A DNA stretch of 64,000 nucleotides from Alphaproteobacteria bacterium (GCA_018662925.1 JABJFC010000086.1:50-64049); one strand, 5' to 3'; positions 13,679 to 60,050 are shown, numbered from the stretch's first letter. The notes: generated from the sequence alone by a model not told the origin. Program-made: numbers and translations.

Positions 13679-13772
13679 GATAAATTGGCCTCTCTGTATT
13701 TTTATCTTTCGTTTTTCCGAATCTTACTATAGATAATTCTTGAAACTTCTGCAACGACTGAGGTGAAACGCA

Positions 13773-14324
13773 ATGTCAACTAAACAAGCTGATTCCTTTG
13801 CATGGCACGGAACAACTATTTTATCGGTCCGAAAAAATAATAAAGTCGTCATTGCTGGTGACGGACAAGTTACCCAAGGCCCCATCGTTATTAAAAATTC
13901 TGCCCGTAAAGTGCGACGACTGGGAGATGGTTCTGTCATTGCAGGATTTGCCGGCGCTACGGCAGATGCAATGACACTGTTTGAACGCTTAGAAGGAAAA
14001 CTGGAACAATACCCAGGACAATTGCCAAGAGCCTGTGTGGAACTAGCTAAAGATTGGCGTACCGATCGGTATTTAAGAAAACTAGAAGCCATGATGGCAG
14101 TAGCCGACAAGAAAAACTCTCTCATTTTAACTGGCACCGGAGACGTCCTGGAACCCGACGATGGCCTCATTGGAATAGGATCAGGGGGCGCCTATGCTTT
14201 GTCAGCAGCCCGCGCTCTAATGGATCAAAAGTTGGAATCCATTGATATTGCCAAAAAAGCCATGACCATCGCCTCAGAGCTTTGCATCTATACCAATTCA
14301 AATTTTACCATTGAAAGCATTTAA
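13773..14324 (+). CDS. hslV: ATP-dependent protease subunit HslV
   Basis: 183 aa; N-terminal TTIL... (Thr nucleophile after Met removal); GDGQVT and GSGG motifs. Confidence 0.9.
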
Positions 14325-14338
14325 GCGAGTATTTCAAA

Positions 14339-18594: not shown

Positions 18595-21435
18595 ATGATT
18601 TCATCCATTTCTATTCGCGGTGCACGAGAGCACAACTTAAAAGATCTCAATGTGGAAATCCCCAAGAACCAACTTGTGGTCATTACGGGCCTCAGTGGAT
18701 CCGGAAAATCCTCCCTAGCATTTGATACGATCTATGCCGAAGGTCAGCGCCGCTATGTGGAAAGCCTGTCTGCCTATGCCCGTCAATTCTTGGAACTCAT
18801 GCAAAAACCCGATATAGATTCCATTGAGGGTCTATCACCGGCCATTGCCATCGAACAAAAGACTACCTCCAAAAATCCTCGATCTACAGTCGGAACCATT
18901 ACGGAAATTTATGATTACCTGCGGCTTTTGTTCGCACGAATAGGTGTCCCCTATTCACCTGCCACAGGACTCCCCATCGAAAGCCAATCTGTTTCTCAAA
19001 TGGTGGATCGTCTTATGGCACTCCCAGAAGGAACAAAGCTTTATCTCTTGGCGCCCATCGTGCGCGGCCGCAAAGGAGAATATCGGAAAGAACTGCTAGA
19101 GCTCCAGCGCAAAGGATTCCAGCGTGTGAAAATAGACGGAGAACTATACGAAATCGATGAAGCACCTGCGCTAAATAAAAAAGTAAAACACGATATCGAT
19201 GTGGTGGTCGATCGACTCGCGGTGAAAGAGACGGTGAAACAGCGCCTCGCAGATACGCTTGAAACAGCCCTATCCATCGCAGATGGCTTGGCCGCGGCAG
19301 AGTTAGCCGATACGGGAGAACGCATTACTTTTTCCGAAAAGTTTGCCTGTCCCGTCTCGGGATTCACCCTGGAAGAAATAGAACCTCGCCTCTTTTCCTT
19401 TAATAACCCTTTCGGAGCCTGTCCAACTTGTGATGGATTGGGCGTTAAAATGGAATTTGACGAGGACCTGGTTGTTCCCAACAAGTCCCTCTCTCTTTTG
19501 AAAGGCGCCATTGCGCCCTGGGCAAATTCCTCAAGCGAATACTATATCCAAACCCTGGAAGGCATTGCACGGCATTACAAAGTCAAGCTTAACGCCCCCT
19601 TCGAGATATTACCTCAAAAAGTTCAAGAGACCATTCTCCATGGTTCTGGGCGAGAAAAAATCGATATCACATATCGGGATGCAAAACGCACCTACACAGT
19701 GTCCAAAGCATTTGAAGGTGTCATTCCCAATATGACACGCCGTTTCCTAGAAACGGAAAGTAGCTGGGTCCGCGAAGAAATGGGTAAATACCAAATGGTC
19801 CATACCTGTGATAGCTGTGAAGCTTTTCGGTTAAAGCCAGAAGCGCTGTGCGTTAAAATTGATGAACTGCACATTGCTGAAGTCACAAACAAGTCCATCG
19901 AAGAGGCCGCTGTCTGGTTTGAAAATCTGCCCTCAAAACTGGACACGCAAAATCAAGAAATTGGCCGGCGGATTCTTAAGGAAATTCAAGAACGCTTGGG
20001 ATTTTTGGTCAGCGTTGGTTTGGGATACCTCACCCTCTCCCGAGGTTCAGGCACGCTATCTGGAGGAGAAAGCCAGCGCATTCGACTGGCCTCTCAAATC
20101 GGATCAGGACTCACCGGTGTTCTTTACGTTCTAGATGAACCCTCTATCGGACTCCATCAACGAGATAACAATCGCCTTTTGGAGACCCTTGTTCGTTTGC
20201 GAGATCTAGGCAACTCCGTCATCGTTGTTGAGCACGATGAAGATGCCATCCGAACTGCCGATCATGTCATTGATATGGGCCCCAGAGCTGGGATTCACGG
20301 TGGAGAAATAATTGCGCAAGGAACGCCAGCAGATATTCTAGCCTCTGAAAAAAGCCTCACAGGACAATACCTGAGTGGGAAGCGAGAAATCCCCATACCT
20401 CAAAGGCGGCGCAAAGGAAAAAGTGATCTGAAAATTATAGGCGCGCAAGCCAACAATCTTCAAAACATAGATGCGACCATTCCTCTCGGCACCTTTACCT
20501 GTGTGACAGGAGTCTCAGGTGGCGGAAAATCATCTCTCATTGTTGAAACGCTTTATAAGGGCTTATCCCGCCTCCTTAATAATTCAAGAATCATTCCAGG
20601 CACCCACAAGAAAATTAGCGGTGCTTATGAATTGGACAAGATTGTTGATATCAATCAATCTCCTATTGGACGGACCCCGCGGTCTAATCCCGCCACCTAT
20701 ACAGGCTGTTTCACGCCCATCCGCGAATGGTTTGCGGGCCTTCCCGAAGCCAAAGCCAGAGGCTATAAGCCAGGACGCTTTTCCTTTAACGTCAAAGGGG
20801 GGCGCTGTGAATCCTGTCAAGGAGATGGGCTTATAAAGATTGAAATGCATTTTCTGCCCGACGTTTATGTCACCTGCGATCAATGTAAGGGTCGTCGTTA
20901 TAACAGAGAAACTTTGGAAATCACATACAAAGGCAAATCCATCGCAGATGTTCTTGATATGACCGTCGATGAGGCAGCAGATTTTTTCGAAGCCCATCCC
21001 AGTCTCAAAGATAAGCTAGCTGTTTTAAACAAGGTTGGGCTTTCGTATATCCATTTGGGCCAATCTGCCACTACCCTTTCAGGAGGTGAAGCACAGCGGG
21101 TTAAATTAGCCAAGGAACTCTCCCGACGCGCCACAGGAAAGACTTTATATATTCTGGATGAGCCAACGACAGGCCTCCACTTTGAAGACACTCGGAAACT
21201 CTTAGAAGTTCTCCAGGCCCTAGTAGACCAGGGCAACTCTGTCCTCGTTATAGAACATAACCTAGACGTGATTAAAACAGCCGACTGGATCATCGATTTG
21301 GGCCCCGAGGGTGGTTCAGGTGGCGGACATATTGTGGCCGCAGGCACGCCTGAAGATATCGTTCATGTTAAAGAAAGCTACACGGGGCATTATCTCAAAC
21401 CACATTTGAAAGGCTACGACGAGAAGGCCGCTTAA
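18595..21435 (+). CDS. uvrA: excinuclease ABC subunit A
   Basis: 946 aa; two ABC modules ([20 protein letters not shown]), zinc fingers, LSGGE signatures. Confidence 0.95.
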
Positions 21436-25299: not shown

Positions 25300-25998
25300 C
25301 TACTCGGATAATTTAAAGTGCTTCTCAGGGATAGTGCCGCCGACCATAAAATTCTCCAAGATCACATGGGTAATATTTCCTTGAGCATCTATCACCTTCC
25401 ATTGAGTTAGCTGTAGCGGTTTTTCCTGAAAACCAAGGACAAGCTGACCCCAATCTGAATCATCATCTTTGCTTAAGGTGATGAAGATATGATTCTTCTG
25501 CTGCTCCACACGATCAACGGAAATGTCCTTTTTAAAATTTACACGCTCTCGAAGGATAAACTCTGCTGGTGTCGAGGAAAGCGGCACATAGCTAATCTCA
25601 TCCAGTTGTTTATCCTGGTACGATACCCAGCTGCCATCGGAGATAATAAGTAAAGGAGACGGCGGATTGTATTCAAGGCGTACACGTCCAGGCCGGGACA
25701 AATAAAGAGTGCCATGGGTCACATTTCCTTGGGCGTCTTTTTGATGAAAATTAGCTTTTACCGTTTTGAGACCGTTGAGATATCCTTCCACATCCTTTAA
25801 GAGACGTTGCGGATTGGAAACCCCTTTGGTCGTTACCGTTTTTTTCGGAGTTTTTGCTCTCAAATAGGAAGCCTTCTGACTTTTCACAACATGTTTATTG
25901 GAATCAGGATGCGCTTTTTTGGACGCTCCCATTGCAGGATCAAAAGCCGAAACAGACAGTCCTCCCATGAGGACAACCAGAAAGAAAATTTTGCGCAT
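25300..25998 (-). CDS. lolA: outer-membrane lipoprotein carrier protein LolA
   Basis: 232 aa; signal peptide; LolA-like beta-barrel length and motifs; conserved ftsK-lolA adjacency. Confidence 0.65.
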   Translation of the reverse strand: MRKIFFLVVLMGGLSVSAFDPAMGASKKAHPDSNKHVVKSQKASYLRAKTPKKTVTTKGVSNPQRLLKDVEGYLNGLKTVKANFHQKDAQGNVTHGTLYLSRPGRVRLEYNPPSPLLIISDGSWVSYQDKQLDEISYVPLSSTPAEFILRERVNFKKDISVDRVEQQKNHIFITLSKDDDSDWGQLVLGFQEKPLQLTQWKVIDAQGNITHVILENFMVGGTIPEKHFKLSE

Positions 25999-26027: not shown

Positions 26028-28349
26028 TTATTGACTTCCGGCCAACACCTCACGCCGGCCAGCATGGTTGGCAGCAGAAATAACGCCCTCTGCCTCCATC
26101 TGTTCAACAATGCGTGCTGCTCTATTGTAACCGATTTGTAAGTGCCGCTGAACAAAACTTGTCGAGGCTTTCTGTTCACGGCAAACAATACTGACGGCTT
26201 GATCATAGAGGGGATCATGGTCGCGACTGGATTCACCACTCACGCCCCCTTCTTCATCTTCCTCGGTCACATCTTCCACATAGGTGGGCGACCCCTGGGT
26301 TTTCAAGAACGCCACCACTTTATCTACTTCTTCATCAGACACAAAAGGACCATGGACGCGCGTAACCCGTCCACCAGCCGCCATGTACAACATGTCTCCT
26401 TGCCCCAAAAGCTGCTCTGCTCCTGCCTCTCCTAAAATTGTACGACTATCAATTTTGGAGGTGACCTGAAAACTAATGCGCGTTGGAAAGTTTGCTTTAA
26501 TAGTTCCTGTTATTACATCCACCGAAGGTCTCTGTGTTGCCATGATTAAGTGGATTCCCGCTGCACGAGCCATTTGCGCCAAGCGCTGAATAACGACTTC
26601 GATATCCTTTCCCGCCACCAACATTAAGTCAGCCATCTCATCGACAACAATGACGATGTAAGGCATTGGCGTCATATCTAGCGGCTGTTCTTCGTAAATA
26701 GCTTTTCCTGTTTCTGGATCGAAGCCAGTTTGAACCTTGCGTTTGATGACTTCTTCCCGTTCCTTAGCCTCTTTAAGGCGCAAATTGTACCCGTCAATAT
26801 TTCGCACCCCAAGGCGCGACATGGCCCGATAACGGTTTTCCATCTCTTTAACCGCCCACTTTAGGGCCACAACTGCCTTTTTCGGATCCGTCACAACTGG
26901 CGTAAGCAAGTGAGGAATATCTTCGTATACGGATAATTCCAACATTTTGGGATCGATCATGATGAACTTACATCGATCTGGCGGCAATCTGTATAGAAGG
27001 GACAGAATCATTGTATTTACAGAAACAGATTTACCAGAGCCAGTCGTTCCCGCCACCAACAAGTGGGGCATACGGGCCAAATCAACGATAATGGGCTCTC
27101 CACCGATGTCTTTCCCAAGAATCAGAGCCAGCCGCCCAGCTGTTCGTTCAAAGGCCTCATGTCCCAACTGTTCCCGGAGCATCACCACATCTCGCTTTTG
27201 GTTGGGTAATTCGATGCCAATAACATTTTGGCCAGCTACCACAGAAACACGAGCCGAAACGGCACTCATAGATCGTGCAATATCACTGGATAATCCAATG
27301 ACTCGAGAAGATTTTAATCCTGGCGCTGGACAAAGTTCGTAAAGAGTTACCACAGGCCCTGGGCGAACTTTAACAATCTCTCCGCGAACACCAAAATCCT
27401 TCAGTACGTTCTCTAGAGAGGCAGCCTTTTTTTCTAAGATATCGTCGCTTTCTTCTTTAAGACCTTTGTCCTTCTTTGGCTTTGCCAACAAGTCATGTGG
27501 TGGCAAACGATAATTCTCGTCAGATACAAGCTCTAGAGGCTTGTACAAAGCAGTTTCATCTGTTCTGTCTAAAGTAACTTTTTCCTTAGTTTTACGCGAT
27601 ACCATCTTCTTCTCAGAAAGAGTTGGCTCCGCAGATTTGGATAATGGAAGTGGTTCCGGAGATTCTTCCACATTTCTTAATTGAATGCGAAGGCCATCCG
27701 GACGTTTCCTCACCAAAAAAAGGAAACCCTTAAAAATGAGATTTGTACTCTTTCCCGTATGCTTCAGAATCTGCTTCCACAGGCGCCAAGGAACCCCCAA
27801 AATATAAAGGAACAAAAGCACCGCGAGAATACCTGAGATAAGAGCCAGAGGAAGATTTCCAATGGCTAGGGTTGAATACAAAGCGATTGTCTTCAGCAGC
27901 TCAAGTCCTAAATATCCCAAGCTCCCTCCCAAAAAACCCCACTCCTTAGGAAGAGGCAAGGCTGTCCAAAATATGGCCCAAAGAACAAGGACGCTGGGCA
28001 ATATCAAAAGCTTCAACCACGGATAGGTTGGGGGACGATGTAATAAAACACGCACCCCCCAAACAACGAGAAGCGGAACAAGAACCCAGCCTGCTATTCC
28101 CATAAGTTGTTGAAAAAGATCCGCCAAAACGGCACCAAAAGGACCCACAAAGTTCCTCACAATATGGGCATCCACGGCAACATTCCATGAGGGATCGGTC
28201 CGATCGTAAGACAAAAGGCTCAATCCCAAAACAATTCCCGAAATAACGAGAACAAAACCCAGACCTTCTGTAGCTCGCAGTTTAAAAAAGGATTTAAAGA
28301 TTGGTGGAAAAAGAGTTCTCTTTGAAACAGTATTTCGCATTCGTGGCAT
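26028..28349 (-). CDS. ftsK: DNA translocase FtsK
   Basis: 773 aa; N-terminal 4-TM domain, Pro-rich linker, RecA-like motor (GTTGSGKS), C-terminal gamma winged helix. Confidence 0.9.
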   Translation of the reverse strand: MPRMRNTVSKRTLFPPIFKSFFKLRATEGLGFVLVISGIVLGLSLLSYDRTDPSWNVAVDAHIVRNFVGPFGAVLADLFQQLMGIAGWVLVPLLVVWGVRVLLHRPPTYPWLKLLILPSVLVLWAIFWTALPLPKEWGFLGGSLGYLGLELLKTIALYSTLAIGNLPLALISGILAVLLFLYILGVPWRLWKQILKHTGKSTNLIFKGFLFLVRKRPDGLRIQLRNVEESPEPLPLSKSAEPTLSEKKMVSRKTKEKVTLDRTDETALYKPLELVSDENYRLPPHDLLAKPKKDKGLKEESDDILEKKAASLENVLKDFGVRGEIVKVRPGPVVTLYELCPAPGLKSSRVIGLSSDIARSMSAVSARVSVVAGQNVIGIELPNQKRDVVMLREQLGHEAFERTAGRLALILGKDIGGEPIIVDLARMPHLLVAGTTGSGKSVSVNTMILSLLYRLPPDRCKFIMIDPKMLELSVYEDIPHLLTPVVTDPKKAVVALKWAVKEMENRYRAMSRLGVRNIDGYNLRLKEAKEREEVIKRKVQTGFDPETGKAIYEEQPLDMTPMPYIVIVVDEMADLMLVAGKDIEVVIQRLAQMARAAGIHLIMATQRPSVDVITGTIKANFPTRISFQVTSKIDSRTILGEAGAEQLLGQGDMLYMAAGGRVTRVHGPFVSDEEVDKVVAFLKTQGSPTYVEDVTEEDEEGGVSGESSRDHDPLYDQAVSIVCREQKASTSFVQRHLQIGYNRAARIVEQMEAEGVISAANHAGRREVLAGSQ

Positions 28350-42221: not shown

Positions 42222-43403
42222 CTAGTGATGACTAGGAACATGCCCCATATACTTGTGAAGAATATCTAACCACTCTTCAGAATAGGACATGTTGAAAACA
42301 GCCTTGTTCAGCGCTAAACGAAGAAGACTATTTTTGGATGTAATCAGGACATAATACTGAGAGGTAAAAGAGTTAGGAAGAACCTTGAGGGTTTTGGCAT
42401 AGTTTTTCTTCACTTGGTATCTCAAAACTGGCTCCGAAAAAACAATGGCTTTTAACTTTCCAGATTCTAAGCTATCGAGCGCAGCTGGTACGGTCTTAAA
42501 AGTTTGATAATTTAGGTGCCTCTTGTCTAAATATTTTGCGCCAATACCTCCCGCTATCGTCCCAACTTCCACTCTTGATAAGTCCGATGGGCCGTAAACT
42601 TCTGGACGAAGAGCATGAGTAGTAAGAGCCCCGGCAACAGTCCCGACAAGGCTGGAAAGGATAACAACCGTACTAATCATCCATGCAACTGCTATTAATC
42701 GTCCATAAATGGTTTTGGGAGCTTCGTCTCCAATAGTAACCATTGTCACAAATGTCCACCAAAGCCCTTCACCAATACCTCTAAGGCTGCCTCCTTGAAA
42801 TGACGGATTAGCTTTTCGTTCTACTGCCCATAGCAACAAACTAAAACAAAGACATAACACAAACAACAATCCCAAAGGCTCCATGAACTTTTTAGATACA
42901 AGATGATCCTTAAGAACTGAATAAAATTTCTCATCCACCTTAGAAACGGCGATGCTTAACCCGGTCACAAAATATGGAATGGTATAATCGGAGATCAAAA
43001 GTTCCTGACGAAGGGGCGTATCACCCGCTATTATATCAAATTTTCCTGAATCTACCTCCTTCAACCCTTCCGATTCGGTCGTTTTTTCAAGAATATATTC
43101 ATATCCAAGATCTTTGCTGATGTGATCTATCAGCTCAATAGACAACCCTTCCCAATCTCCTTGCTCCGACATCATTGCAAAGGGAGCTCCTTCTACAACA
43201 CCCACTTTAAGAACTGTGGATTTCGACAATGAATTAGGCACCGCACCAGAAGACGCTGAACCAACCGTTGTTTGATCGTGCTGAATGACAGTGGAAGTTG
43301 GCTCTGTCTGGTCAGCAAAAGATGATTGGAAGCTCGCTACAAAGAATATAATTGCGAATAGTAAAAAATAAAAAGAGCGATGATTAGCCACAATTATATT
43401 CAT
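42222..43403 (-). CDS. ionotropic-glutamate-receptor-like ligand-gated channel (solute-binding lobe 1, TM-pore loop-TM, lobe 2)
   Basis: 393 aa; signal peptide; SBP-like halves interrupted by two TM helices flanking a pore-loop-like WWTFVTMVTIGDEAP; GluR0-like topology. Confidence 0.5.
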   Translation of the reverse strand: MNIIVANHRSFYFLLFAIIFFVASFQSSFADQTEPTSTVIQHDQTTVGSASSGAVPNSLSKSTVLKVGVVEGAPFAMMSEQGDWEGLSIELIDHISKDLGYEYILEKTTESEGLKEVDSGKFDIIAGDTPLRQELLISDYTIPYFVTGLSIAVSKVDEKFYSVLKDHLVSKKFMEPLGLLFVLCLCFSLLLWAVERKANPSFQGGSLRGIGEGLWWTFVTMVTIGDEAPKTIYGRLIAVAWMISTVVILSSLVGTVAGALTTHALRPEVYGPSDLSRVEVGTIAGGIGAKYLDKRHLNYQTFKTVPAALDSLESGKLKAIVFSEPVLRYQVKKNYAKTLKVLPNSFTSQYYVLITSKNSLLRLALNKAVFNMSYSEEWLDILHKYMGHVPSHH

Positions 43404-46350: not shown

Positions 46351-46426
<76 letters not shown>

Positions 46427-46555: not shown

Positions 46556-47125
46556 ATGATTAAGTCACTATATCTTTACCTTCTGGGCCTATCTCCCTTT
46601 TTGAAAGGAACATACATCGGAGGGCTTTTCTTAGGCGCTCCTCTAATGGGGATGCCCATTACGGGATTGGTGTATTTGTCAGCTCTCTTTTTTAGCTTTT
46701 GGACTGGCTTGGCAGTGGCCTTCCTTGGATATTTTGCTAGCACTATCCTCTATTACGAGATGGCTCAGAAAATATCTAAAATTAAGTTTGTCGAAGCCAG
46801 GTTAGAGAGAATAATCAATCGTCTCCCAAAAATGATTAAAAATCCCGATACGGTTACCATTGCGCTGTCAGCCATGATTTTTCCCTTCTTGTTTATGGTG
46901 CTCAGCCTTGGGCTCATGAAACAAGACCGATTGAAAGCCTATACAGGGATTTATCTTGGAGGTCTTCCCGCCTTTATTATTGCCTATCAAGCAGGTGCCA
47001 TCGGTCAAAATTTTGTTCTAGAATATAACCAAACTCGATTGATTCTTTCCGGTATTCTCATTACGGTATGCCTTGCTGTACATTTCCTTTTCGTACGACG
47101 TGCAAAGAGAAAGTTCAATGTTTAG
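46556..47125 (+). CDS. small polytopic membrane protein (4-5 TM), putative lipid-linked sugar flippase-like partner of the downstream GT2
   Basis: 189 aa, hydrophobic; stop overlaps the GT2 start by 8 nt (ATGTTTAG), implying translational coupling. Confidence 0.35.
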   Translation: MIKSLYLYLLGLSPFLKGTYIGGLFLGAPLMGMPITGLVYLSALFFSFWTGLAVAFLGYFASTILYYEMAQKISKIKFVEARLERIINRLPKMIKNPDTVTIALSAMIFPFLFMVLSLGLMKQDRLKAYTGIYLGGLPAFIIAYQAGAIGQNFVLEYNQTRLILSGILITVCLAVHFLFVRRAKRKFNV

Positions 47126-47861
47126 AAAAATTTACTTCCTCCTTCCCGTTTACAATGAATCCAAAAGCATCCATGACCTGCTCCTTAATATTGATGCTTT
47201 TTCTCAAACCATTTCCCCTTCAGTGGAAAGCATCGTGATCGACGACTGCAGCAAAGACGATTCCAAAAAATGGATTCAGAAAGCAAAAAATAATTTGAAA
47301 AATATCACCCTTACAGAAATTTTTCATACTGAAAATCAAGGACTTAGAGGCGCCCTAAATTCAGGGTTCGCTCATCTTTCAAATCAAGTCTCTCACGATA
47401 CAGCGGTGATTACGATGGATGGGGATAACACCCACAACCCATATTTGGTCCGGGAAATGATAGAGAGACTAGAGCAAGGGGCCGACATGGCTATTGCATC
47501 TCGGTACTGCCCTCAATCGCGCATTAGTGGTCTTCCCAAACACCGTATATTCCTCAGCCAGGGAGCCCGACTTTTGTACAAAATATTTTGGCGAATTCCC
47601 GGTGTGAAGGACTATACCTGCCTGTTCCGTGCTCATTCAGGAGAGCTCCTGAAAAAGTTCTATAAATGTACACCTGCACCTTACTTGGAAGAAAAAAGTT
47701 TTGCCTGTACCACAGAATTGCTAGCCAAGTTAAATAAGGCTGCCCCCACCATTGTGGAGGTCCCCATGATTCTCAAATACGGGAACAAGTTTTCTGCCTC
47801 TAACGTGCAACTGGGAAGAACCATTTTGTCCTCCCTCCAAATTCTGACGCGTAAAGCTTAA
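47118..47861 (+). CDS. GT2 glycosyltransferase (polyprenyl-phosphate sugar synthase type, DPM1/GtrB/ArnC-like)
   Basis: Motifs PVYNES, IVIDDCSKDDS, DGD; about 247 aa from the ATG at 47118 (the ORF track starts earlier, at 47073). Confidence 0.75.
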   Translation: MFRKIYFLLPVYNESKSIHDLLLNIDAFSQTISPSVESIVIDDCSKDDSKKWIQKAKNNLKNITLTEIFHTENQGLRGALNSGFAHLSNQVSHDTAVITMDGDNTHNPYLVREMIERLEQGADMAIASRYCPQSRISGLPKHRIFLSQGARLLYKIFWRIPGVKDYTCLFRAHSGELLKKFYKCTPAPYLEEKSFACTTELLAKLNKAAPTIVEVPMILKYGNKFSASNVQLGRTILSSLQILTRKA

Positions 47862-47863
47862 CC

Positions 47864-48979
47864 ATGAAAATTTTGACAGTTTTTGGCACGCGGCCTGAAG
47901 CCATTAAACTCGCACCAGTGATTCATCAGCTTCAAGCAACCCCTGGCATCCAAAATGTGACTTGCAATACAGGGCAGCACACCACCATGGTAGATCAAGT
48001 CATTCAGATTTTTGGACTACGTTTGGATTACGATTTGCAACTCATGCAACCCAATCAGACTCTCCCTCAACTTTCCCAACGGGTTTTAGAAAAATTCACC
48101 CCTATTCTAAAAAAAGAAAAGCCTGATTACATCCTAGTCCAAGGAGATACGACAACGGTATTTATAACCAGTTTAGCTGCTTTTTATGAACAAATACCCG
48201 TTGCCCATTTAGAAGCCGGACTTCGCTCAGGAGACCTCTATTCTCCCTGGCCTGAAGAAGCTAACCGCGCCCTTACATCTGTCTTAGCAAAAGTTCATTT
48301 TGCCCCGACAGAACCCGCTCGTGAAAATCTGCTTAAAGAGAATGTCCCAGCAGATACAGTCCTCGTAACCGGAAATACGGTTGTAGATGCGCTCCTCTTT
48401 ACAAGTAAAAAAATAGATATGGATTCTGTTCTACGGCAGAAATTAGAACAAATGCTGCCTCCCATAAATCCCAAAAAGAGAACAATCTTAGTCACCTTAC
48501 ATCGTCGGGAAAGCCATAGTGGTGGCATAGAAAACGTATGTAATGCCCTCAAAGAATTGTGCCGACGCCCAGATGTGGAAATTATCTTTTCAGTGCATCC
48601 CAACCCCAATGTTCAAAAAACAGTGGAAGAAACATTGGGTGGGCTTTCAGCTGTCAAACTCATACAACCACCACACTACGAAGCCTTTGTATATCTTATG
48701 AAGCACGCCTATTTGATTTTAACTGATTCGGGAGGCATTCAAGAAGAGGCTCCCTCATTAGAAAAACCGGTCCTCGTTGCCCGAGAAAAAACAGAACGGC
48801 CTGAAGGGATAAAGGCTGGCTGCAGCATTCTTGTCGGCACAGAAACCCAGAACGTGTTGGAAATGATCCAACGCTTTCTAGACGACAAAGAATATTACAC
48901 CCAATTCGCAAAAAGTAAAAATCCCTATGGCGACGGGAATGCCTCTAGTCGAATTGCAAAATTCTTCGCACAATCATGA
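47864..48979 (+). CDS. wecB: UDP-N-acetylglucosamine 2-epimerase (non-hydrolysing)
   Basis: 371 aa; MKILTVFGTRPEAIK, HLEAGLRS and DSGG motifs characteristic of WecB/MnaA. Confidence 0.85.
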   Translation: MKILTVFGTRPEAIKLAPVIHQLQATPGIQNVTCNTGQHTTMVDQVIQIFGLRLDYDLQLMQPNQTLPQLSQRVLEKFTPILKKEKPDYILVQGDTTTVFITSLAAFYEQIPVAHLEAGLRSGDLYSPWPEEANRALTSVLAKVHFAPTEPARENLLKENVPADTVLVTGNTVVDALLFTSKKIDMDSVLRQKLEQMLPPINPKKRTILVTLHRRESHSGGIENVCNALKELCRRPDVEIIFSVHPNPNVQKTVEETLGGLSAVKLIQPPHYEAFVYLMKHAYLILTDSGGIQEEAPSLEKPVLVAREKTERPEGIKAGCSILVGTETQNVLEMIQRFLDDKEYYTQFAKSKNPYGDGNASSRIAKFFAQS

Positions 48980-50970
48980 CTGAAAAATTATTCTCATTTA
49001 CCTTTTATCTCACTGTTCTAATGCTCATTTTGGGCTTGCCAATTGACACGTGGTGGAAGTTCTCTGTCCTTGCCACGGGCCTTTCCGCAGCCCTGATATT
49101 TGGGCTTCATCTATCACAAAAGAAAATCCTGTACGCATTAGGAATCTTGATGTTGCTCACTATGGGAAAGTGGGCTCTTCCCATAAGCTATCTGGATCAA
49201 GGAGGCAACGTCTACATTCCAGAAGCACCTTTTGCTAAGTCACTTCCCCAAGCAGTTGAGGAATTTTCGACTCAAGAATTTCAGAGGCTCTACCCAACAC
49301 ACAACATTTCATCAGATGGATGGACCGATGCTTTTCTCGTTGAAAAATTCCATAAAGATTCGCCCTTGTCTCGCCGTATTCAATCTATTGATTTTTCCAA
49401 TCGGCATGAGCTTCGCTTTGGCGCTTTCAATAAGAATATTTACAATACCTACCATGATATGATTCCAAAACGGGAATTCCTCCCCTACGTCTTGCATATT
49501 CAACTCCCAAAAAACCTTGCCCAAAGCCCCAGTACAAAAATCTGCTGGAAAGGAATTCTCTACCTCCCCACGAAAGATGGAAACCTTGAACAAACGACGT
49601 CCTTGGAAAACAAATGCATTTCGACTCACAATCCTCAGATAACATCCTTCTATGCCGTAGATATTGATCCAGAAACTCCTCTTGCGCTCCACATTCAAAA
49701 GCCCTTCTCCCATGCCATATGGGATTGGGCTGAGTTGGCTTTGATCATTCTCGCTACTTGCGTCCTGTGTGGGATCCTCATACCAATTGGAACCCCTCTA
49801 CACTCTCTCCGATCAGACACCAATTATCGTCGAAAAACGATCATTTTGGGACTTTCTTTTCTACTTTCCATAGGCGTAGCCTTTCTCTATCGACCCCTTT
49901 TTCAAACAGGTTTTCTCCTCTTAGAGGGAGGAAATGACGGACTTAGCTATTCTACTGCAGCGCGCTATATCCTAGAGTCACTCTATACCTTCCATTGGCA
50001 GGGAGTGTTCCAGGGATCCGAAAACATATATGATCTCATGCCCTGGCATCGTTATTTCTACGCTTTAAATCTTTACCTATTTGGCGAAACACACTTGGGT
50101 TACTTTCTTATTATCTGTTTCTTTCCATTTGTCATTTTCGGACTTTTGGAGAAGATACTCTCCCCCAAATGGAGCTTTTGGCTTACCTTAGCCTTTCTAA
50201 TCGCCCCGATTTTCGAATCCTTTGGGTTTGCCCAATTCTATATGGTTCGACTCTGTATGCGTGGATTTTCAGAACCCCTTAGCTATTTTTTCTTCCTAAG
50301 CGCAGTCTCTTTGAGCCTTCCCCTCTTAAAAAAGCTCCCAGAAAAAGATATACTTTCCCCGTTGTTTTTTACTGGACTCCTCTTTGCTTTCTCCGTTGGA
50401 ATTCGCCCCAATCTTGCCGTTGGTGCCGGTGTATATATATCTCTTCTGGGACTAATTTTACTTTTGAAACAAAGGGTTGCAGATATCTTAAGCCTAGCCG
50501 CAGGATTTAGCCCCATTCTCTTGATCCCAATTCACAATTATGTCTTTGGCAATCAACTCGTGCTATTTACCATTGCCGCACAGAAGGTAGAAAATTTAGC
50601 CATACAGCCCAAAGATTATATAACCCTCATTAAAGTACTCATGGATGGCCATTGGCCTGGACAAGAGTTGTTTAAAATATGGCATCACCTAACAAGTGAG
50701 GTTCCCTTCTCCCGTTTTTGGCTCTATTTTGCCCTCTTGATAAATGGATATATTTTGTTTTGGAAACGTATGCCCTATTACGCAAAAGTTATCAGCGCGA
50801 GTGGACTCGCTCAATTTGCCATAACCTTTTTTTACCGGACAAATGGACGGTATAGCTATCTCCATTGGACACTTTTGTTATTAGGAATTTTTCTGTTTGT
50901 GAAGGAAGTGAAGCTTCATCATCGGTTTGACTGGCGCCGAAAGTCCAAAAAAGTCTCAGCGCGTCTTTAA
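48976..50970 (+). CDS. large polytopic membrane protein, putative GT-C-type lipid-linked sugar transferase or polymerase
   Basis: 664 aa; more than 12 hydrophobic helices with an approximately 170-aa hydrophilic loop; start overlaps the wecB stop (ATGA); no clear family motif. Confidence 0.35.
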   Translation: MTEKLFSFTFYLTVLMLILGLPIDTWWKFSVLATGLSAALIFGLHLSQKKILYALGILMLLTMGKWALPISYLDQGGNVYIPEAPFAKSLPQAVEEFSTQEFQRLYPTHNISSDGWTDAFLVEKFHKDSPLSRRIQSIDFSNRHELRFGAFNKNIYNTYHDMIPKREFLPYVLHIQLPKNLAQSPSTKICWKGILYLPTKDGNLEQTTSLENKCISTHNPQITSFYAVDIDPETPLALHIQKPFSHAIWDWAELALIILATCVLCGILIPIGTPLHSLRSDTNYRRKTIILGLSFLLSIGVAFLYRPLFQTGFLLLEGGNDGLSYSTAARYILESLYTFHWQGVFQGSENIYDLMPWHRYFYALNLYLFGETHLGYFLIICFFPFVIFGLLEKILSPKWSFWLTLAFLIAPIFESFGFAQFYMVRLCMRGFSEPLSYFFFLSAVSLSLPLLKKLPEKDILSPLFFTGLLFAFSVGIRPNLAVGAGVYISLLGLILLLKQRVADILSLAAGFSPILLIPIHNYVFGNQLVLFTIAAQKVENLAIQPKDYITLIKVLMDGHWPGQELFKIWHHLTSEVPFSRFWLYFALLINGYILFWKRMPYYAKVISASGLAQFAITFFYRTNGRYSYLHWTLLLLGIFLFVKEVKLHHRFDWRRKSKKVSARL

Positions 50971-52200
50971 AACCAAACAATCGTGATGATTCGAGGTTAA
51001 AATTTTACAAGCCCTATTTGCGCGTTCTTGATGCAGACCAACCAATCGCGCTCGATATAATGTTCCTTTCTTTCCTTTCAAAGTGGTCACATATATTTGG
51101 GACTCTTTCAAATGTGTATTGTAGCTTTTCAACATTTTTTTTGCCTGACCTTTGGCAGCAGAATGCTTCGAATAAACTCCCACTTGTACAGCCCAATTTC
51201 GAGAACCAGTGCTCTCCGCTGCATGGGCCGTTGATATGATGCTAGGCAATTTAAAGGAAGAAGCCTCCCTTGGCTTTAAGCGTGGAGACGGTAAATTCTG
51301 TACAGAGGCTATACGATAAGGATCAGAGTGAGGTTTTTTCTTGAATCCTAACTTAAACAAATTTCTGATTTTTTTATCCCGTGCCGATTTCGTGTGCTCC
51401 CCCATAACCACGACAATAAGCCTCGTATCTCCTCTTAAAGCAGATGCAGCAAGATTAAAACCTGCGGCATTGGTAAAACCTGTTTTAATGCCATCTAGTC
51501 CTTGAATCTTTCCCAAGAGCCTGTTGTGATTTTTATGATGAGTACCTTTATACTTGAAGGCACGGGTCGCAAACCATTTGTAATAGTTGGGATGAGTGTG
51601 AATCAGTGACTTTGAAAGACGTGCCATATCTCTTGCTGTAGACTTTTGCCGCGAATTGGGAAGTCCAGATGCATTCCTGTAGTTGGTTCGATTCATCCCC
51701 AGTTGCCGAGCCTTATGATTCATCATCATGGCAAACTTTCCTTCAGTTTTCCCCAAATGCTCAGCAATTACGACAGCCACATCATTGGCAGATTTTGTAA
51801 TGAGTCCCATGACGGCATCACGAACTGAAAGACTGCTACCTACCCTGAGACCAAATTTAGAAGGTGGACGATTTGCAGCATATCTAGACACTTTTAATTT
51901 GGTGTTTAGTGATAATTTTCCAGCTTTAAGGGCATCGAATACAAGATAGAGAGTCATCATCTTAGTCATGGAGGCCGGGTGGCGTTGAAGATCTGATCTC
52001 TGCTGATGAATAACGCGTCCTGATCTAGCGTCCATGACAATAGATGCCGAAGGCAGGTTCGCCAAGACATTTTGTGGAAGCACTGCAAAAAGCATACCAA
52101 CACATAAAAATGAACAAATAAGATTCTTAACCAGTCTTCCCCCCATCGAAAACACCCTACCCCTGTCAGTTTTTCGAGTATATACAAATAAAGTGGTCAA
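50956..52200 (-). CDS. D-alanyl-D-alanine carboxypeptidase (S11, PBP5-like) with C-terminal SPOR domain
   Basis: SxxK (ASMTKMMT), SxN (KSANDVA) and KTG (IKTGFT) motifs; C-terminal SPOR-like WAVQVGVYS...LYRARLVGL. Confidence 0.8.
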   Translation of the reverse strand: MTTLFVYTRKTDRGRVFSMGGRLVKNLICSFLCVGMLFAVLPQNVLANLPSASIVMDARSGRVIHQQRSDLQRHPASMTKMMTLYLVFDALKAGKLSLNTKLKVSRYAANRPPSKFGLRVGSSLSVRDAVMGLITKSANDVAVVIAEHLGKTEGKFAMMMNHKARQLGMNRTNYRNASGLPNSRQKSTARDMARLSKSLIHTHPNYYKWFATRAFKYKGTHHKNHNRLLGKIQGLDGIKTGFTNAAGFNLAASALRGDTRLIVVVMGEHTKSARDKKIRNLFKLGFKKKPHSDPYRIASVQNLPSPRLKPREASSFKLPSIISTAHAAESTGSRNWAVQVGVYSKHSAAKGQAKKMLKSYNTHLKESQIYVTTLKGKKGTLYRARLVGLHQERANRACKILTSNHHDCLVLKTR

Positions 52201-55151: not shown

Positions 55152-58100
55152 TTGGAGTGTAGAAAAGCGCATAAACTCACAGGGAAAAAAATGATTTCTA
55201 CAGTAAAAAAGTCACCGCTAGATGAAGTTGCTTTGTTGCTTCCCAAGAAAAGTGGAAAAAAACAAAAGTCCCTGGTGGATTTTATGTACCAGTTATTAGA
55301 AAATACCAGTCATGGTGATTTAGAGCAATTAGGCACAAAAACCCTGGCATCGTTAGCCGATGATTTTTATCACTTTGCTCAACAACGAAAAGCAGGAGAA
55401 GAAAAAGTTAAGGCCTTTATTCCTGATGCCAAGAGGTTCCCTAATTTAGCTAACAGTACTGTTATTGAAGTCGTCCATGATGACATGCCTTTTCTCGTAG
55501 ATTCTTTGACCAGTGAGCTGCAAAGGCATGATCTTACGATCCGACTCACCATCCACCCCGTCATAAAAATCGAGAGAACCGCTGGGGGAGCAGTCCAAAA
55601 AATTCTAGATCGCAGAAATGCTTTAGAAAAAGATCATTTCGAATCTTGCATCGTTATTGTATTGGCCGAAACTCTTTCCAATAAAAAATTAGACGACATT
55701 AAATCAAATATTGTGAAGGTTCTTAAAGATGTTCAGAAAAGCGTCCGAGACTGGGCCGCCATGCGCTCTCGTGTTCTAGAAGCCGAATATATGGTTGAAC
55801 AGAATGCCCTACTGAATTCAGATAAGGATAGAGACGAAGTGGTCGAATTTCTACGCTGGCTGAGCAATGACCATTTTACGTTTCTGGGCTATCGCGACTA
55901 CACTTTTTCAAAAGCTAAAGCAGATCCAGATCTTATCTCAAGTTTGGGTTTCTTATCTGACACTCATCGTAGACTCTTCAAAGGCAATAGCGACTTTCTG
56001 AGCCCTCAATGCCAAATAGGAAAAAAGTGCACTCTCTCAGATGTTTTGATGATTACTAAAACCATCTGTCGTTCTACCGTTCACCGAAACGCCCCCATGG
56101 ACGTTATCCGACTTAAAAAATTCGATGAAAGTGGAAATGTTATTGGTGAAATCCAGTTCGTTGGACTATTTACCTCAACAGCTTACAATAGAAGTCCGAG
56201 AGACATTCCGCTCTTGCGACGTAAGGTACGTCAAGTCCTGAAGAAATCAAGTTTCTCCCCCCAATGGCACGATGGAAAAGCGTTAATACATATCTTGGAA
56301 TCCTTGCCCCGGGATGAACTTTTTCAGATGACCAACGAGAATTTGTACGAAGTAAGCATAGCTATTCTTCACTTGCAAGAGCGACAACGCCTCTCCCTTT
56401 TTGTGAGAGAAGACCCCTTTGAGCATTTTATTTCCTGTCTCATTTATGTCCCTCAAGACCGCTATAACTCCGAACTTAGAGAGAAAATGCAGGAAATTCT
56501 CGAGGCGGCTTTCCAAGGTCCCATTAGCTTTTGGCAGTCCCAACTGGGAGATCTCCCTTATGCACGCGTACACTTCATTATTACACTCTCGCCGGGAGCT
56601 CTCCCTAAGTACGATACAAAAGAACTTGAACAAAAACTATTTCAAGCTTCCCTGTCCTGGAAAGATCTCCTAAAAGAGCAGTTTATTGAAACATTTAGCG
56701 CTGGAACTGGTCGTGAATATTTTCGACACTTTGCCAAAGCGTTTCCAGTTCCATATCAATCTAGATATGGAGCACAAACTGCTACAGAAGATGCTTTACG
56801 GATTGACGAAATCTCTGCAGATGCCCCTCTCTCGATAAAATTAGTCAGCCCCAGTGAAGCCACTAAACCAGAACTTCATGCTAAGCTATATCATCATGAT
56901 CAGGCCTTACCACTAGCCGCAGTCCTACCTCTTTTTGAGAGTATGGGGCTCAAAGTTCTGAATGAGACTTCTTTTAAGATACTGCCCAAAGAAAGATTAT
57001 CCCCCGTCTGGATTCACGACTTTGAAATTTCTCTAGAGAGACTTGAACTCAAAGACACTCTAAAGGTTAGTGCCCTTTTTGAAGACTGTTTTCTTAAAAT
57101 ACATCAAGGAGTTGTCGAAAATGACCAGTTCAATGCTCTGGTTTTTAAAAGTGAATCGCCCTGGCATAATATCGTCATCTTGCGAGCGTATGCCAAATAC
57201 TTGCGCCAATTAGGGGTTCCTTATAGTCAAAGCTACATTGAAGAAGCGCTTATTCATCAACCTAACATCGTAAAAAAACTGGTTGATCTCTTTTATCTCC
57301 GATTTGACCCTGAAATGCAGAAGATCAAAACGAGAGAATCTAAAGAAAAAAATCTTGTTTCGTCCATAACGAAAGCGCTCGATGAGGTCAAAAGTCTTGA
57401 TGAAGACCGGATTTTAAGAAGCTACCTGAACCTTATTACATCAACACTTCGTACAAATTATTTCCAGCGAAAAATAGAAGAACAAAAAGAGAATGTCCTT
57501 TCATTCAAAATTCATGCAGCCAAAATTTTTGACATGCCAGAACCACGCCCAGAATACGAAATCTTTATGTACTCCCCACGAATGGAAGCTGTCCATTTAC
57601 GGGGTGGCAAAATTGCCCGAGGAGGCATCCGCTGGTCAGATCGTCGTGAAGACTTCAGAACCGAAATCTTGGGGCTCATGAAAGCCCAGATGGTTAAAAA
57701 TACAGTTATCGTGCCCACGGGTGCTAAGGGCGGCTTTATCGTAAAAACGACCAAAAATGGGAAAACACGAGACGAATTTCTCCAGGAAGGGATCGCCTGT
57801 TATCAACAGATGATTCGAGGAATCCTAGATATCACTGATAACATTAAGAGTGGCAAAGCGGTCCCTCCCCAAAAAGTAGTGATATATGATGAAGATGATC
57901 CGTATCTTGTGGTCGCGGCAGACAAAGGAACTGCTACTTTCTCTGACATAGCCAACGAAATTTCTGCCGAATATAACTTCTGGCTCGGGGATGCTTTTGC
58001 TTCTGGCGGAACTTCTGGATACGATCATAAAAATATGGGGATAACAGCCCGGGGAGCGTGGGAGTCGGTCAAGCGCCATTTTCAAGAATTGAATACCAAT

Positions 58101-60050
58101 ATAGAAACGACTGATTTCGCGGTAGTGGGCATTGGTGACATGGCTGGCGATGTTTTTGGCAATGGTATGCTTTGTTCTTCTCACATTAAGTTGATCGGTG
58201 CATTTAATCACCAACATATTTTTCTGGACCCAAATCCAGATGCCTCAAAGAGTTTTGCAGAAAGACAGAGACTTTTTAAGCTCCCTCGATCCAGTTGGGA
58301 AGATTATAATTCGAAGCTAATTTCTAAAGGCGGGGGTGTCTTTAGTCGTCAAGCAAAAGCAATAAAACTTTCTAAAGAAACGAAGGCGCTTCTGGGTATA
58401 GCCCATGACTCTCTCTCTCCAAATGAGCTTATTAAAGCCCTTTTAAAAGCGTCCTATGACCTTCTTTGGTTTGGAGGCATTGGGACCTTCATAAAAAGCT
58501 CTGACGAAAAAAATTCTGACGCTGGAGATCGATCCAATGATGGGCTCCGTGTAAATGCTAAAGACTTAAATTGCCGTATTATTGGAGAAGGCGCCAATTT
58601 AGGCATTACTCAAAAGGGCCGCATCGAATTCGCTCTAGCCGGCGGAAAAATAAACACTGATTTTATAGATAACTCAGCCGGTGTCGACTGCTCTGATCAT
58701 GAAGTAAATCTTAAAATTTTTATGAAACAGTTAATTGATCAAAAAGTTTTAAGCCCCGCTAAAAGAAATACTTTGTTGGCACAAATAGAACCAAATGTTG
58801 CTTCCCTGGTGTTGCGAGACAACTACCTACAAACACAAATTATCAGTATCATTGAATCCCAAGGCATAAAGATTCTTGGCCAACAAGCCAGGTTTATGAG
58901 AAACCTTGAGCGCATGCAGATACTTAACCGAGAGCTAGAGTTTCTCCCAAATGACGATATTATCGCCGAACGTTTCGCTCATGGAATCGGTTTCACTCGC
59001 CCTGAGATCGCTGTCTTACTCTCTTACAGTAAAATATCACTGAAAATAAAACTTATGGAATCTTCTAGTACTGAAGATTCGCATTTTCTGAGCAATTTAT
59101 ATGACTACTTTCCGAAAAAGATCCAAGAAAAATATAAAAAGCAAATGATGAATCACCCTCTAAAAAGGGAAATAATTTTGACCCAAGTGATCAATGAAAT
59201 GGTGAATAGGACTGGTTTTGCCTTCGTCACAGACATGGTTGAACAATCCGGTGCAAAAATTAGAGATGTCCTAAAATCCTATACAATCGTGTGCAGTATC
59301 TTCGATCTTAATAGTCACTGGGAATCAATTGAAAAATTGGACAATAAAGTAAACGCTGAAACTCAAACACAAATGCAAATGGAAGTCGTCCACTTTCTCA
59401 GGCTCTCTGTTTTATGGTTTTTAAGACACAAACGTTTCAATATTCAGGATGAAATTAAAGCATTTTCTGAAGGAATCATGTCCTTAAGTTCTAATATGAC
59501 CAAATATGTGACGAAGTCAGATTATGAGTTAAATCTGGAGGAATCCAAAAACTATATTTCTTGTAGTGTTCCAAAGCAACTTGCTCAAAAAATAGCCTTC
59601 ATGAATTTTCTTCCATTTAGTCTTTATATTGTCCAGATATCAAAGGAATGTACTATTTCCATTGAATCTATTGCCCGTACATATTTTTATGTGGGAGAAT
59701 TCTTTGGATTTAATTGGCTTCGAGATGAAGCCGACAACCTTATTTCTGAAAACTATTGGCAAAAAATCTCCATAAGTGCCCTTGTCGACGAACTTTCCAA
59801 ATGTCAGAGCAAACTTACGAAGGCTATTCTCCAGTACTGTCAAAAATCCCAGAAAGGATGTCCAAATATTAACAAGCCTGAAGTGGTTGTAGATCACTGG
59901 GTACAAAATCATTCCAACATTTATACTCAATTGGATCAGCTTTTAAATGATTTCAAAACCCATAACGTCGATATATCGATGCTTTTTGTCGCTGTTCGTC
60001 AACTAAATGAGTTTTTAAAACTACCGACAACTTATCCACGAAATCCGTGA
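55152..60050 (+). CDS. gdhZ: NAD-specific glutamate dehydrogenase, large (about 180 kDa) GdhZ/GdhB type
   Basis: 1632 aa; catalytic core GGIRWSDRREDF...VPTGAKGGF typical of the large NAD-GDH family. Confidence 0.9.
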   Translation: MECRKAHKLTGKKMISTVKKSPLDEVALLLPKKSGKKQKSLVDFMYQLLENTSHGDLEQLGTKTLASLADDFYHFAQQRKAGEEKVKAFIPDAKRFPNLANSTVIEVVHDDMPFLVDSLTSELQRHDLTIRLTIHPVIKIERTAGGAVQKILDRRNALEKDHFESCIVIVLAETLSNKKLDDIKSNIVKVLKDVQKSVRDWAAMRSRVLEAEYMVEQNALLNSDKDRDEVVEFLRWLSNDHFTFLGYRDYTFSKAKADPDLISSLGFLSDTHRRLFKGNSDFLSPQCQIGKKCTLSDVLMITKTICRSTVHRNAPMDVIRLKKFDESGNVIGEIQFVGLFTSTAYNRSPRDIPLLRRKVRQVLKKSSFSPQWHDGKALIHILESLPRDELFQMTNENLYEVSIAILHLQERQRLSLFVREDPFEHFISCLIYVPQDRYNSELREKMQEILEAAFQGPISFWQSQLGDLPYARVHFIITLSPGALPKYDTKELEQKLFQASLSWKDLLKEQFIETFSAGTGREYFRHFAKAFPVPYQSRYGAQTATEDALRIDEISADAPLSIKLVSPSEATKPELHAKLYHHDQALPLAAVLPLFESMGLKVLNETSFKILPKERLSPVWIHDFEISLERLELKDTLKVSALFEDCFLKIHQGVVENDQFNALVFKSESPWHNIVILRAYAKYLRQLGVPYSQSYIEEALIHQPNIVKKLVDLFYLRFDPEMQKIKTRESKEKNLVSSITKALDEVKSLDEDRILRSYLNLITSTLRTNYFQRKIEEQKENVLSFKIHAAKIFDMPEPRPEYEIFMYSPRMEAVHLRGGKIARGGIRWSDRREDFRTEILGLMKAQMVKNTVIVPTGAKGGFIVKTTKNGKTRDEFLQEGIACYQQMIRGILDITDNIKSGKAVPPQKVVIYDEDDPYLVVAADKGTATFSDIANEISAEYNFWLGDAFASGGTSGYDHKNMGITARGAWESVKRHFQELNTNIETTDFAVVGIGDMAGDVFGNGMLCSSHIKLIGAFNHQHIFLDPNPDASKSFAERQRLFKLPRSSWEDYNSKLISKGGGVFSRQAKAIKLSKETKALLGIAHDSLSPNELIKALLKASYDLLWFGGIGTFIKSSDEKNSDAGDRSNDGLRVNAKDLNCRIIGEGANLGITQKGRIEFALAGGKINTDFIDNSAGVDCSDHEVNLKIFMKQLIDQKVLSPAKRNTLLAQIEPNVASLVLRDNYLQTQIISIIESQGIKILGQQARFMRNLERMQILNRELEFLPNDDIIAERFAHGIGFTRPEIAVLLSYSKISLKIKLMESSSTEDSHFLSNLYDYFPKKIQEKYKKQMMNHPLKREIILTQVINEMVNRTGFAFVTDMVEQSGAKIRDVLKSYTIVCSIFDLNSHWESIEKLDNKVNAETQTQMQMEVVHFLRLSVLWFLRHKRFNIQDEIKAFSEGIMSLSSNMTKYVTKSDYELNLEESKNYISCSVPKQLAQKIAFMNFLPFSLYIVQISKECTISIESIARTYFYVGEFFGFNWLRDEADNLISENYWQKISISALVDELSKCQSKLTKAILQYCQKSQKGCPNINKPEVVVDHWVQNHSNIYTQLDQLLNDFKTHNVDISMLFVAVRQLNEFLKLPTTYPRNP

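Follow-up and report, generated by a model that had tools for sequence, protein, structure and literature searches.

We analyzed a 64,000-nucleotide stretch of DNA from an Alphaproteobacteria bacterium (GCA_018662925.1, JABJFC010000086.1:50-64049), referred to below as the window, and focused on a module of four genes at positions 46556–50970 that appears to encode an extracytoplasmic glycosylation system. The module consists of four open reading frames (ORFs) on the plus strand, which encode proteins of 189, 247, 371 and 664 amino acids. The first gene (46556–47125) encodes a small membrane protein, as judged from the ORF call and hydropathy; the second (47118–47861) encodes a GT2 glycosyltransferase carrying a PF00535 domain, its 247 residues being counted from the ATG; the third (47864–48979) encodes WecB, a non-hydrolysing UDP-N-acetylglucosamine (UDP-GlcNAc) 2-epimerase (TIGR00236, PF02350); and the fourth (48976–50970) encodes a protein with approximately 14 transmembrane (TM) helices, which we assign to an unannotated family of membrane glycosyltransferases with a predicted GT-C fold. 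A first-pass annotation of the window, made from the sequence alone, had proposed these four genes within the same outer coordinates and given the size of the large protein, and our ORF calls agree with it. It had also described the genes as overlapping at their junctions, which holds for two of the three: the stop of the small gene and the GT2 ATG overlap by 8 nucleotides (ATGTTTAG, 47118–47125) and the wecB stop and the start of the 664-residue gene by 4 nucleotides (ATGA, 48976–48979), whereas the GT2 stop codon (TAA, 47859–47861) is separated from the wecB ATG at 47864 by a 2-nucleotide gap. The four are real genes and not chance ORFs: homologues of all of them are arranged in the same way at other loci.

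Two of the start sites required a choice. The longest ORF for the GT2 gene begins at a TTG codon at 47073; this start was rejected in favor of the ATG at 47118, where the homologues begin with the pattern M-x-x-x-IYFLLPVYNE. The start of the 664-residue protein is backed by conservation of residues 1–58 among its homologues. Public gene calls mostly use an internal ATG that yields a protein of 606 residues (e.g., P0001) and lose two conserved N-terminal TM helices (48976–49149); judged from this comparison, the 606-residue calls are truncated. The NCBI record MBT4879474.1 contains the full 664 residues.

The 664-residue protein has a predicted GT-C fold

The first-pass annotation could name no family for the 664-residue protein, and neither could we by sequence: the protein matches no Pfam or NCBIfam family, also when matches up to E ≤ 10 are considered, and searches of the Protein Data Bank (PDB) sequences with profiles of 4 and 102 family members returned nothing meaningful. 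That annotation had also proposed structure prediction. An AlphaFold2 model built on the 102-sequence alignment reached a mean predicted local distance difference test (pLDDT) score of 96.3 and a predicted template modeling (pTM) score of 0.94, compared with a pLDDT of 51.7 when a 4-sequence alignment was used. The model displays about 14 TM helices, in agreement with the hydropathy peaks and with the 7–13 or more expected of GT-C enzymes, and is structurally similar to solved GT-C enzymes. The enzymes listed begin with Pmt4 (score 19.0), AglB (18.1), ArnT (17.9), ALG3 (17.3) and ALG12 (17.1), continue with PIG-M, AftA, ALG6, Pmt1/2, ALG9, AftB, STT3B, PIG-U, DPY19 and PimE, and end with PglB (11.0) and AftD (10.9). 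Thus, according to the model, the 664-residue protein has a GT-C fold.

Three parts can be distinguished in the model. The first (48976–49173) consists of three N-terminal TM helices (residues 2–19, 26–42 and 48–66), which are conserved in homologues together with Gly20 and Pro22. The second (residues 67–243, 49174–49704) is an extracytoplasmic β-rich domain with strands at residues 73–79, 171–176, 188–198, 204–216, 224–229 and 237–241; it corresponds to the hydrophilic loop of roughly 170 residues that had been noticed in the first-pass annotation, and the loop is therefore real. Foldseek returned weak matches of this domain to cupin, ApaG and Ig-like sandwiches, and we propose from its modeled structure that it is an acceptor-binding module or one resembling a carbohydrate-binding module (CBM). 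The third part is the GT-C core (residues 244–664, 49705–50967), delimited by conservation, by the model helices and by profile alignment with hhalign. After the β domain, the model continues with TM4 (residues 244–268), TM5 (282–305), a loop containing the motif EGGNDGL, and two short helices (321–337 and 341–346) that resemble the juxtamembrane helices in the first external loop (EL1) of GT-C enzymes; nine more TM helices follow. By the hhalign alignment with ArnT described below, the GT-C core proper would begin at TM5, and the three N-terminal helices, the β domain and TM4 would constitute an added module.

We measured conservation in family alignments of 102 and 69 members. In the N-terminal part and the β domain, Pro22, Pro91, Arg133, Asn152, Arg166, Pro170 and Gly193 are at least 90% conserved. 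In the core, the same threshold is reached by Gly319, Asp321, Gly347, Pro356, Arg359, Tyr360, Phe369, Gly370, Arg477, Pro478, Asn479, His520, Asn521, Gly525, Arg625 and Trp631. A pair of cysteines in the β domain, Cys190 and Cys214, is invariant or at least 90% conserved among the closer relatives. When helices are counted with the N terminus inside, the β domain, Asp321, Arg359/Tyr360, Arg477–Asn479, His520/Asn521 and Arg625 all fall on the outside, and Gly319, Pro356, Phe369, Gly370 and Trp631 are likewise predicted to lie in extracytoplasmic loops. The loops that this count places in the cytoplasm, together with the C-terminal tail, are rich in lysine and arginine (13 of 48 residues, versus 5 of 32 in the short outer loops).

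The first extracytoplasmic loop after the first core TM helix contains a conserved acidic residue, Asp321 of the GG-x-DGL motif (codon 49936–49938), which is aligned with Asp31 of ArnT and which we regard, from its conservation and position, as the candidate catalytic acid. A different role would be that the protein has the fold without being a glycosyltransferase, serving as a scaffold or lipid-binding subunit in the way PIG-U does in the glycosylphosphatidylinositol (GPI) transamidase, or transferring something other than a sugar. The conserved aspartate and the partner genes described below speak against a non-catalytic GT-C fold, and we consider such a role highly improbable.

The protein belongs to a large family of hypothetical proteins

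A word-index homologue search covering 5.8 billion proteins found four clusters with 40–45% identity to the 664-residue protein, with no gain when the 102-sequence profile was used. An exhaustive HMMER search with a profile of these four clusters against 1.84 billion representatives extended the family to 639 clusters at 50% identity (E ≤ 1e-3), with 229 clusters at E ≤ 1e-30. The members are nearly all full-length at 640–700 residues, and those named by any source are called “hypothetical protein” (metagenome-assembled genomes [MAGs] of Alphaproteobacteria, Bdellovibrionales and Pseudomonadota). A scan of genome contigs, which used narrow patterns and found two MAGs, under-samples the taxonomic range of the family among genomes.

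The first-pass annotation had suggested screening the protein against profile hidden Markov models of GT-C families. The window protein is not matched by PMT_2 or PMT (GT39 and GT83, which include ArnT and the protein O-mannosyltransferases), even at E ≤ 10; PMT_2 does match 2 of the 69 aligned family members weakly, with a best E value of 5.3e-5. Similarly, NF047440, a “putative glycosyltransferase” family of Leptospira (LA_3751/LA_3752), does not match the window protein and matches 8 of the 69 members weakly (best E value 2e-6); by sequence it is at most a remote relative. A further sequence link comes from hhalign, which aligned residues 320–506 of the family profile with residues 30–206 of Escherichia coli ArnT (probability 50.6%, E value 1.6e-4). 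In this alignment Asp321 falls on Asp31 in the PDETRY motif of ArnT, and the family motif MPxxRYF falls on GLRYFEKP.

Some members carry C-terminal fusions to a methyltransferase, an SGNH/GDSL hydrolase, a UbiA prenyltransferase or a PgpA phosphatase domain (P0114, P0133, P0079, P0111, P0021 and P0067). As far as domain assignments can tell, these fusions fit glycan and lipid-carrier chemistry. By analogy with the GT136 pentofuranose systems, the UbiA and PgpA fusions hint at donors of the polyprenyl-phosphoribose type in the members that have them.

The partner genes encode a GT2 enzyme, an epimerase and a small membrane protein

The second gene product matches PF00535 with 78 bits. Its best matches among PDB sequences are DPMS (5mlz, E value 4e-16), ArnC and GtrB, the last (5ekp) only at an E value of 2e-5 over the catalytic domain, and it is 23% identical to E. 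coli ArnC in the catalytic domain. The best NCBIfam matches (ArnC, PgfS, PgaC and PpgS) all lie far under their equivalog cut-offs, with 55.9 bits against a cut-off of 529 for the ArnC equivalog NF007986 and 35 bits against 370 for PpgS. The hydropathy profile contains no hydrophobic segment, so the protein does not have the C-terminal membrane helices of GtrB and ArnC. These relationships bear out the description of the enzyme in the first-pass annotation as being of the polyprenyl-phosphate type, and we propose, on the same grounds, that it is a polyprenyl-phosphate N-acetylhexosamine (HexNAc) synthase.

The identification of WecB, also made in that annotation, is secure. The protein scores 467.6 bits with TIGR00236, for which the cut-off is 210, and 389 bits with PF02350; it is 55% identical to WecB of E. 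coli K-12 over 365 of its 371 residues, and the GDTTT, EAGLR, PWPEE and HRRES motifs line up in the two proteins. Its sequence thus identifies it as the enzyme that supplies UDP-N-acetylmannosamine (UDP-ManNAc), which would be put to use in the pathway proposed below.

The small protein of 189 residues contains about four to five hydrophobic segments. Together with three orthologues, it matches the whole profile of VTT_dom (PF09335) with 18.4–25.1 bits (E values 3e-3 to 2.6e-5; cut-off 33.9); a Pfam scan of the orthologues gave only these sub-threshold VTT_dom hits, with no match to GtrA (PF04138), and there was no match to DUF2304 at E ≤ 1. The family of the small protein comprises only 9 clusters, none with a precomputed Pfam assignment, and the two that are named by their source come from Alphaproteobacteria MAGs. 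The protein is possibly a distant relative of DedA/VTT-type proteins, to go by these profile matches, and we propose that it serves either as a lipid-carrier flippase or as a membrane partner and activator of the GT2 enzyme.

Family members are associated with polyprenyl-phosphate-type GT2 genes

A metagenome scan with a 9-sequence alignment yielded 73 loci, whose neighboring genes were read by tblastn. In 32 of the 56 loci with at least 300 nucleotides of downstream sequence, a GT2 gene lies directly downstream on the same strand and matches the GT2+GtrA fusion found at one locus, L013. These GT2 proteins are 41–47% identical to the L013 fusion, with two exceptions at 24–26%, and the matches extend over nearly the whole length where the contig allows. 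When both flanks could be read, 18 of 23 metagenomic loci had an adjacent GT2 gene; in a soil clade it is divergent and lies upstream. Pfam scans define the partner. At L013, the gene for a GT2+GtrA_DPMS_TM fusion lies upstream and overlaps the gene of the family member P0014, the nearest relative outside the WecB-containing clade that we looked up (31% identity); at L026, the one marine locus scanned, the partner combines PF00535 with PF04138. Such a fusion is a typical polyprenyl-phosphate sugar synthase, and a neighborhood of this kind is what one would expect around the gene for the third, periplasmic component of a system that glycosylates by way of a lipid carrier.

The complete order of small gene, GT2, wecB and large gene is found in the window, at L005/L010 and L009/L011 (Alphaproteobacteria MAGs), and at L016/L092 and L091; L006 has GT2, wecB and the large gene. 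The WecB-type module therefore occurs in six divergent lineages, in which the large proteins are 40–45% identical and the flanking genes differ in each. With neighbors that change from lineage to lineage, the module is thus a conserved unit, and we rejected the idea that WecB is an accidental neighbor because it keeps its position in all six. Between L016 and the window, both GT2 and WecB are 55% identical and the small proteins 32%.

Several of these loci show local peculiarities. At L006, a Phd/PIN toxin–antitoxin pair (5340–6001) occupies the place of the small membrane gene, and a gene for a TLC-type ATP/ADP translocase (13623–15182) lies near the module; to judge by its sequence, the translocase suggests that part of the clade lives inside cells or depends on a host. 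At L009/L011, two ORFs of 167 and 216 residues together make up WecB (4876–5993), and at L092 the GT-C gene is broken into parts of 487 and 150 residues (6001–8048); either the assemblies contain frameshifts here or the module is decaying in some lineages.

In a further locus, L015, the family member lies among two Wzy_C genes, a GT1 gene, methyltransferase genes and a formyltransferase gene. These surroundings would be at home in a conventional polysaccharide assembly locus, in which the 664-residue protein would be a transporter, or a polymerase or ligase of the Wzy, WaaL or SEDS type acting on diphosphate-linked glycans. The window protein is not a transporter and has no Wzy/WaaL-type match, so that the confident assignment to an unrelated transporter family, which the first-pass annotation had named as the outcome that would speak against glycosylation, did not emerge. 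Of the explanations that we weighed, this one has the slimmest chance of being correct.

A proposed pathway for lipid-carrier glycosylation

We consider it likely that the four genes together constitute a single operon, which would serve glycosylation outside the cytoplasm by way of a lipid-monophosphate sugar donor. In the proposed pathway, WecB would convert UDP-GlcNAc to UDP-ManNAc in the cytoplasm. The TM-less GT2 enzyme would then load a HexNAc, most likely ManNAc, onto polyprenyl phosphate at the membrane's inner face, as its relatives lead us to infer. The small protein, which is translationally coupled to the GT2 enzyme, may anchor and activate it in the manner of GacJ and Rv3632; alternatively, it may flip the lipid-linked sugar or recycle the carrier in the manner of GtrA or DedA proteins. 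In the sister clades, the GtrA domain fused to GT2 would fill this role. Finally, the 664-residue enzyme would transfer the sugar from the flipped donor to an envelope acceptor on the periplasmic side, using Asp321 in the first core loop and a ring of conserved arginine, histidine and tyrosine residues, with the β domain probably helping to hold the acceptor.

A number of observations weigh against this pathway or parts of it. The case for co-transcription is one of gene spacing, as scans for promoters and terminators gave matches at chance level only. The links of the large protein to known GT-C families at the sequence level are weak: the hhalign probability is only 50.6%, with one ArnT sequence as the target, and no GT-C model is hit by the protein of the window; enzymatic activity of the family members is a suggestion of the structural model, and the periplasmic placement of the conserved residues one of helix counting. 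For the small protein, the VTT_dom scores are below threshold, an hhalign comparison with E. coli DedA was negative (probability 0.25%), and the gene is missing from the module at L006. With respect to the sugar, what points to ManNAc is the presence of WecB, the sister clades without WecB carry a different GT2 subfamily (23–30% identical to the GT2 of the window clade), and the literature searched contains no report of a polyprenyl-phosphate-linked ManNAc donor.

The identity of the sugar is where the closest alternative arises. The same three-step scheme could operate with GlcNAc or another UDP-sugar, with WecB feeding a different ManNAc pathway or balancing the pools of UDP-HexNAc. In addition to the silence of that literature, the characterized polyprenyl-phosphate HexNAc synthases GacI and PpgS make GlcNAc or GalNAc (N-acetylgalactosamine) donors, and most of the 664-residue family works without WecB. 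Nevertheless, wecB is wedged between the GT2 and GT-C genes, with a 2-nucleotide gap on one side and a 4-nucleotide overlap on the other, and it keeps this place in six lineages with differing flanks; the GT2 that accompanies it belongs to a distinct subfamily, a pattern in keeping with a switch to another donor sugar. We therefore judge a donor other than ManNAc to be unlikely, and return to the pathway with ManNAc: because the 2-epimerase is built into the module, a lipid-linked ManNAc donor is implied. Taken at its boldest, the proposal would make this the first polyprenyl-phosphate-ManNAc pathway, the 664-residue family a new GT-C family for the CAZy database, characterized by a module of three TM helices and a disulfide-bonded β domain, and the small protein a divergent DedA/VTT flippase that replaces GtrA; for this combination as a whole our confidence is low, and we put it forward tentatively.

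Among the targets of GT-C enzymes are lipid A, O-antigens, teichoic acids, arabinogalactan and proteins, and the decorations that the enzymes add govern phage receptors, resistance to antibiotics and recognition by the immune system. With the present analysis, more than 600 clusters of “hypothetical proteins”, from a family widely distributed among uncultured bacteria of marine and soil habitats, can be assigned to this class, with a candidate catalytic residue and a defined partner enzyme. In the window clade, the UDP-GlcNAc 2-epimerase points to a lipid-linked ManNAc donor, and the possibly DedA-like protein in the place of GtrA makes the clade a natural setting for testing whether proteins of the DedA type can serve lipid-linked sugar pathways. 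Modification of the envelope in host-associated lineages may also be involved, given that the module occurs in uncultured Alphaproteobacteria and that one relative has an ATP/ADP translocase. Should the system turn out to be of the ordinary GlcNAc type, the annotation would be useful and hold no surprise.

Surroundings of the module in the window

A tRNA-Thr(CGT) gene (46351–46426) ends 130 nucleotides upstream of the module, and an Rfam scan detected two tRNAs only, with no riboswitch or leader. Downstream, a gene on the minus strand (50956–52200) encodes a D,D-carboxypeptidase of the PBP5 type (Peptidase_S11), which carries a SPOR domain at its C terminus. This gene is convergent with the GT-C gene and overlaps its 3′ end by 15 nucleotides, which leaves no space for a terminator between the two.

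Other parts of the window contain features of separate interest. Positions 1–12700 form a stretch of low GC content (0.31–0.40, versus 0.41–0.47 elsewhere) that ends near a tRNA-Asn gene (12597–12672, minus strand) and carries a gene for a Mu-type transposase/integrase (2725–4164) followed by an overlapping ORF of 248 residues (4152–4898); this stretch probably represents a mobile element or a genomic island. An ORF of 953 residues without a Pfam match at E ≤ 1e-5 (21618–24479, minus strand) lies between uvrA (18595–21435) and an ORF of 232 residues (25300–25998), which is followed by ftsK (26028–28349). The gene at 42222–43403 (minus strand) encodes a GluR0-like prokaryotic ligand-gated channel, in which the pore of an ion channel (Lig_chan/Ion_trans_2) interrupts a periplasmic-binding-protein fold (SBP_bac_3). 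A giant NAD-specific glutamate dehydrogenase of 1632 residues, counted from a TTG codon, is encoded at 55152–60050 (plus strand), and its Bac_GDH domains were detected in the identical locus L001.

Comparison with known systems

The logic of the module is that of the GtrA/GtrB/Gtr* (GtrC) systems for O-antigen glucosylation, which are found in phages and chromosomes of Shigella and Salmonella. In the Gtr scheme, a cytoplasmic GT2 enzyme makes the polyprenyl-phosphate sugar and acts together with a linked small membrane protein and a serotype-specific periplasmic GT-C enzyme (PMC11127046). The first-pass annotation had likened the module to GtrA/GtrB/GtrC and to ArnC/ArnT, and the likeness persists at the level of this overall logic, with the sister clades of the 664-residue family even pairing with a GT2+GtrA fusion. 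It does not extend to the components: the small protein of the window is not GtrA (no PF04138 match), the GT2 enzyme has no C-terminal helices, WecB is inserted, and the GT-C enzyme matches no Gtr model and possesses the extra N-terminal module of three TM helices and β domain. Compared with the ArnC/ArnT (ArnE/F) system for modification of lipid A with aminoarabinose, there are no homologues of ArnA/B/D or ArnE/F, and the 664-residue protein has no PMT_2 match and a core that starts at TM5, after the added N-terminal module.

The best functional analogues of the coupled small gene and GT2 gene are GacI/GacJ/GacK/GacL of Streptococcus pyogenes and PpgS/Rv3632, which also provide a precedent for a TM-less GT2 enzyme that works with a small membrane partner. 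The GT-C partner of PpgS/Rv3632 in Mycobacterium tuberculosis is Rv3779. In GacI/GacJ and PpgS/Rv3632, a polyprenyl-phosphate-HexNAc GT2 enzyme annotated as cytoplasmic is encoded beside a small membrane protein that binds and stimulates it, after which the HexNAc is passed on by a GT-C enzyme at the outer side of the membrane (bioRxiv 10.1101/180810). By this analogy, a GacJ-like role of the small protein is possible. GacJ and Rv3632 belong to DUF2304 and have about 113 residues and three TM helices, whereas the window protein has 189 residues and a weak VTT_dom match only. In addition, the donors of the Gac and PpgS systems are GlcNAc and GalNAc, their modules contain no 2-epimerase, and their GT-C enzymes are unrelated in sequence to the 664-residue protein.

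The recently founded family GT136 (Citrobacter youngae ORF12/13/15) offers a parallel of another kind. It is a GT-C family recognized by AlphaFold and not by sequence, and it works with a polyprenyl-phosphate-sugar synthase, a flippase and auxiliary epimerases and contains a β-rich carbohydrate-binding domain (PMC11127046). GT136 enzymes differ in having a C-terminal CBM and a first periplasmic domain after TM1, and in being accompanied by a MATE flippase and a UbiA-type synthase, to go by the published description of their architecture. With regard to the small protein, DedA proteins are reported to be flippases of undecaprenyl phosphate (C55-P) needed for lipid-carrier-dependent envelope modification (PMC9876793, PMC12893004). 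With 189 residues, the small protein is shorter than typical DedA proteins of the DedA/VTT superfamily (UptA-type), E. coli DedA having 219 residues. In summary, as far as sequence criteria reach, the system of the window would work like GtrABC, ArnC/ArnT, GacI/J/K/L or PpgS/Rv3632 while failing the sequence tests for membership in each, and it is set apart by its GT-C enzyme, which belongs to an unannotated family and has an unusual module at the N terminus, by a built-in 2-epimerase, and by a possibly DedA-like protein that replaces GtrA.

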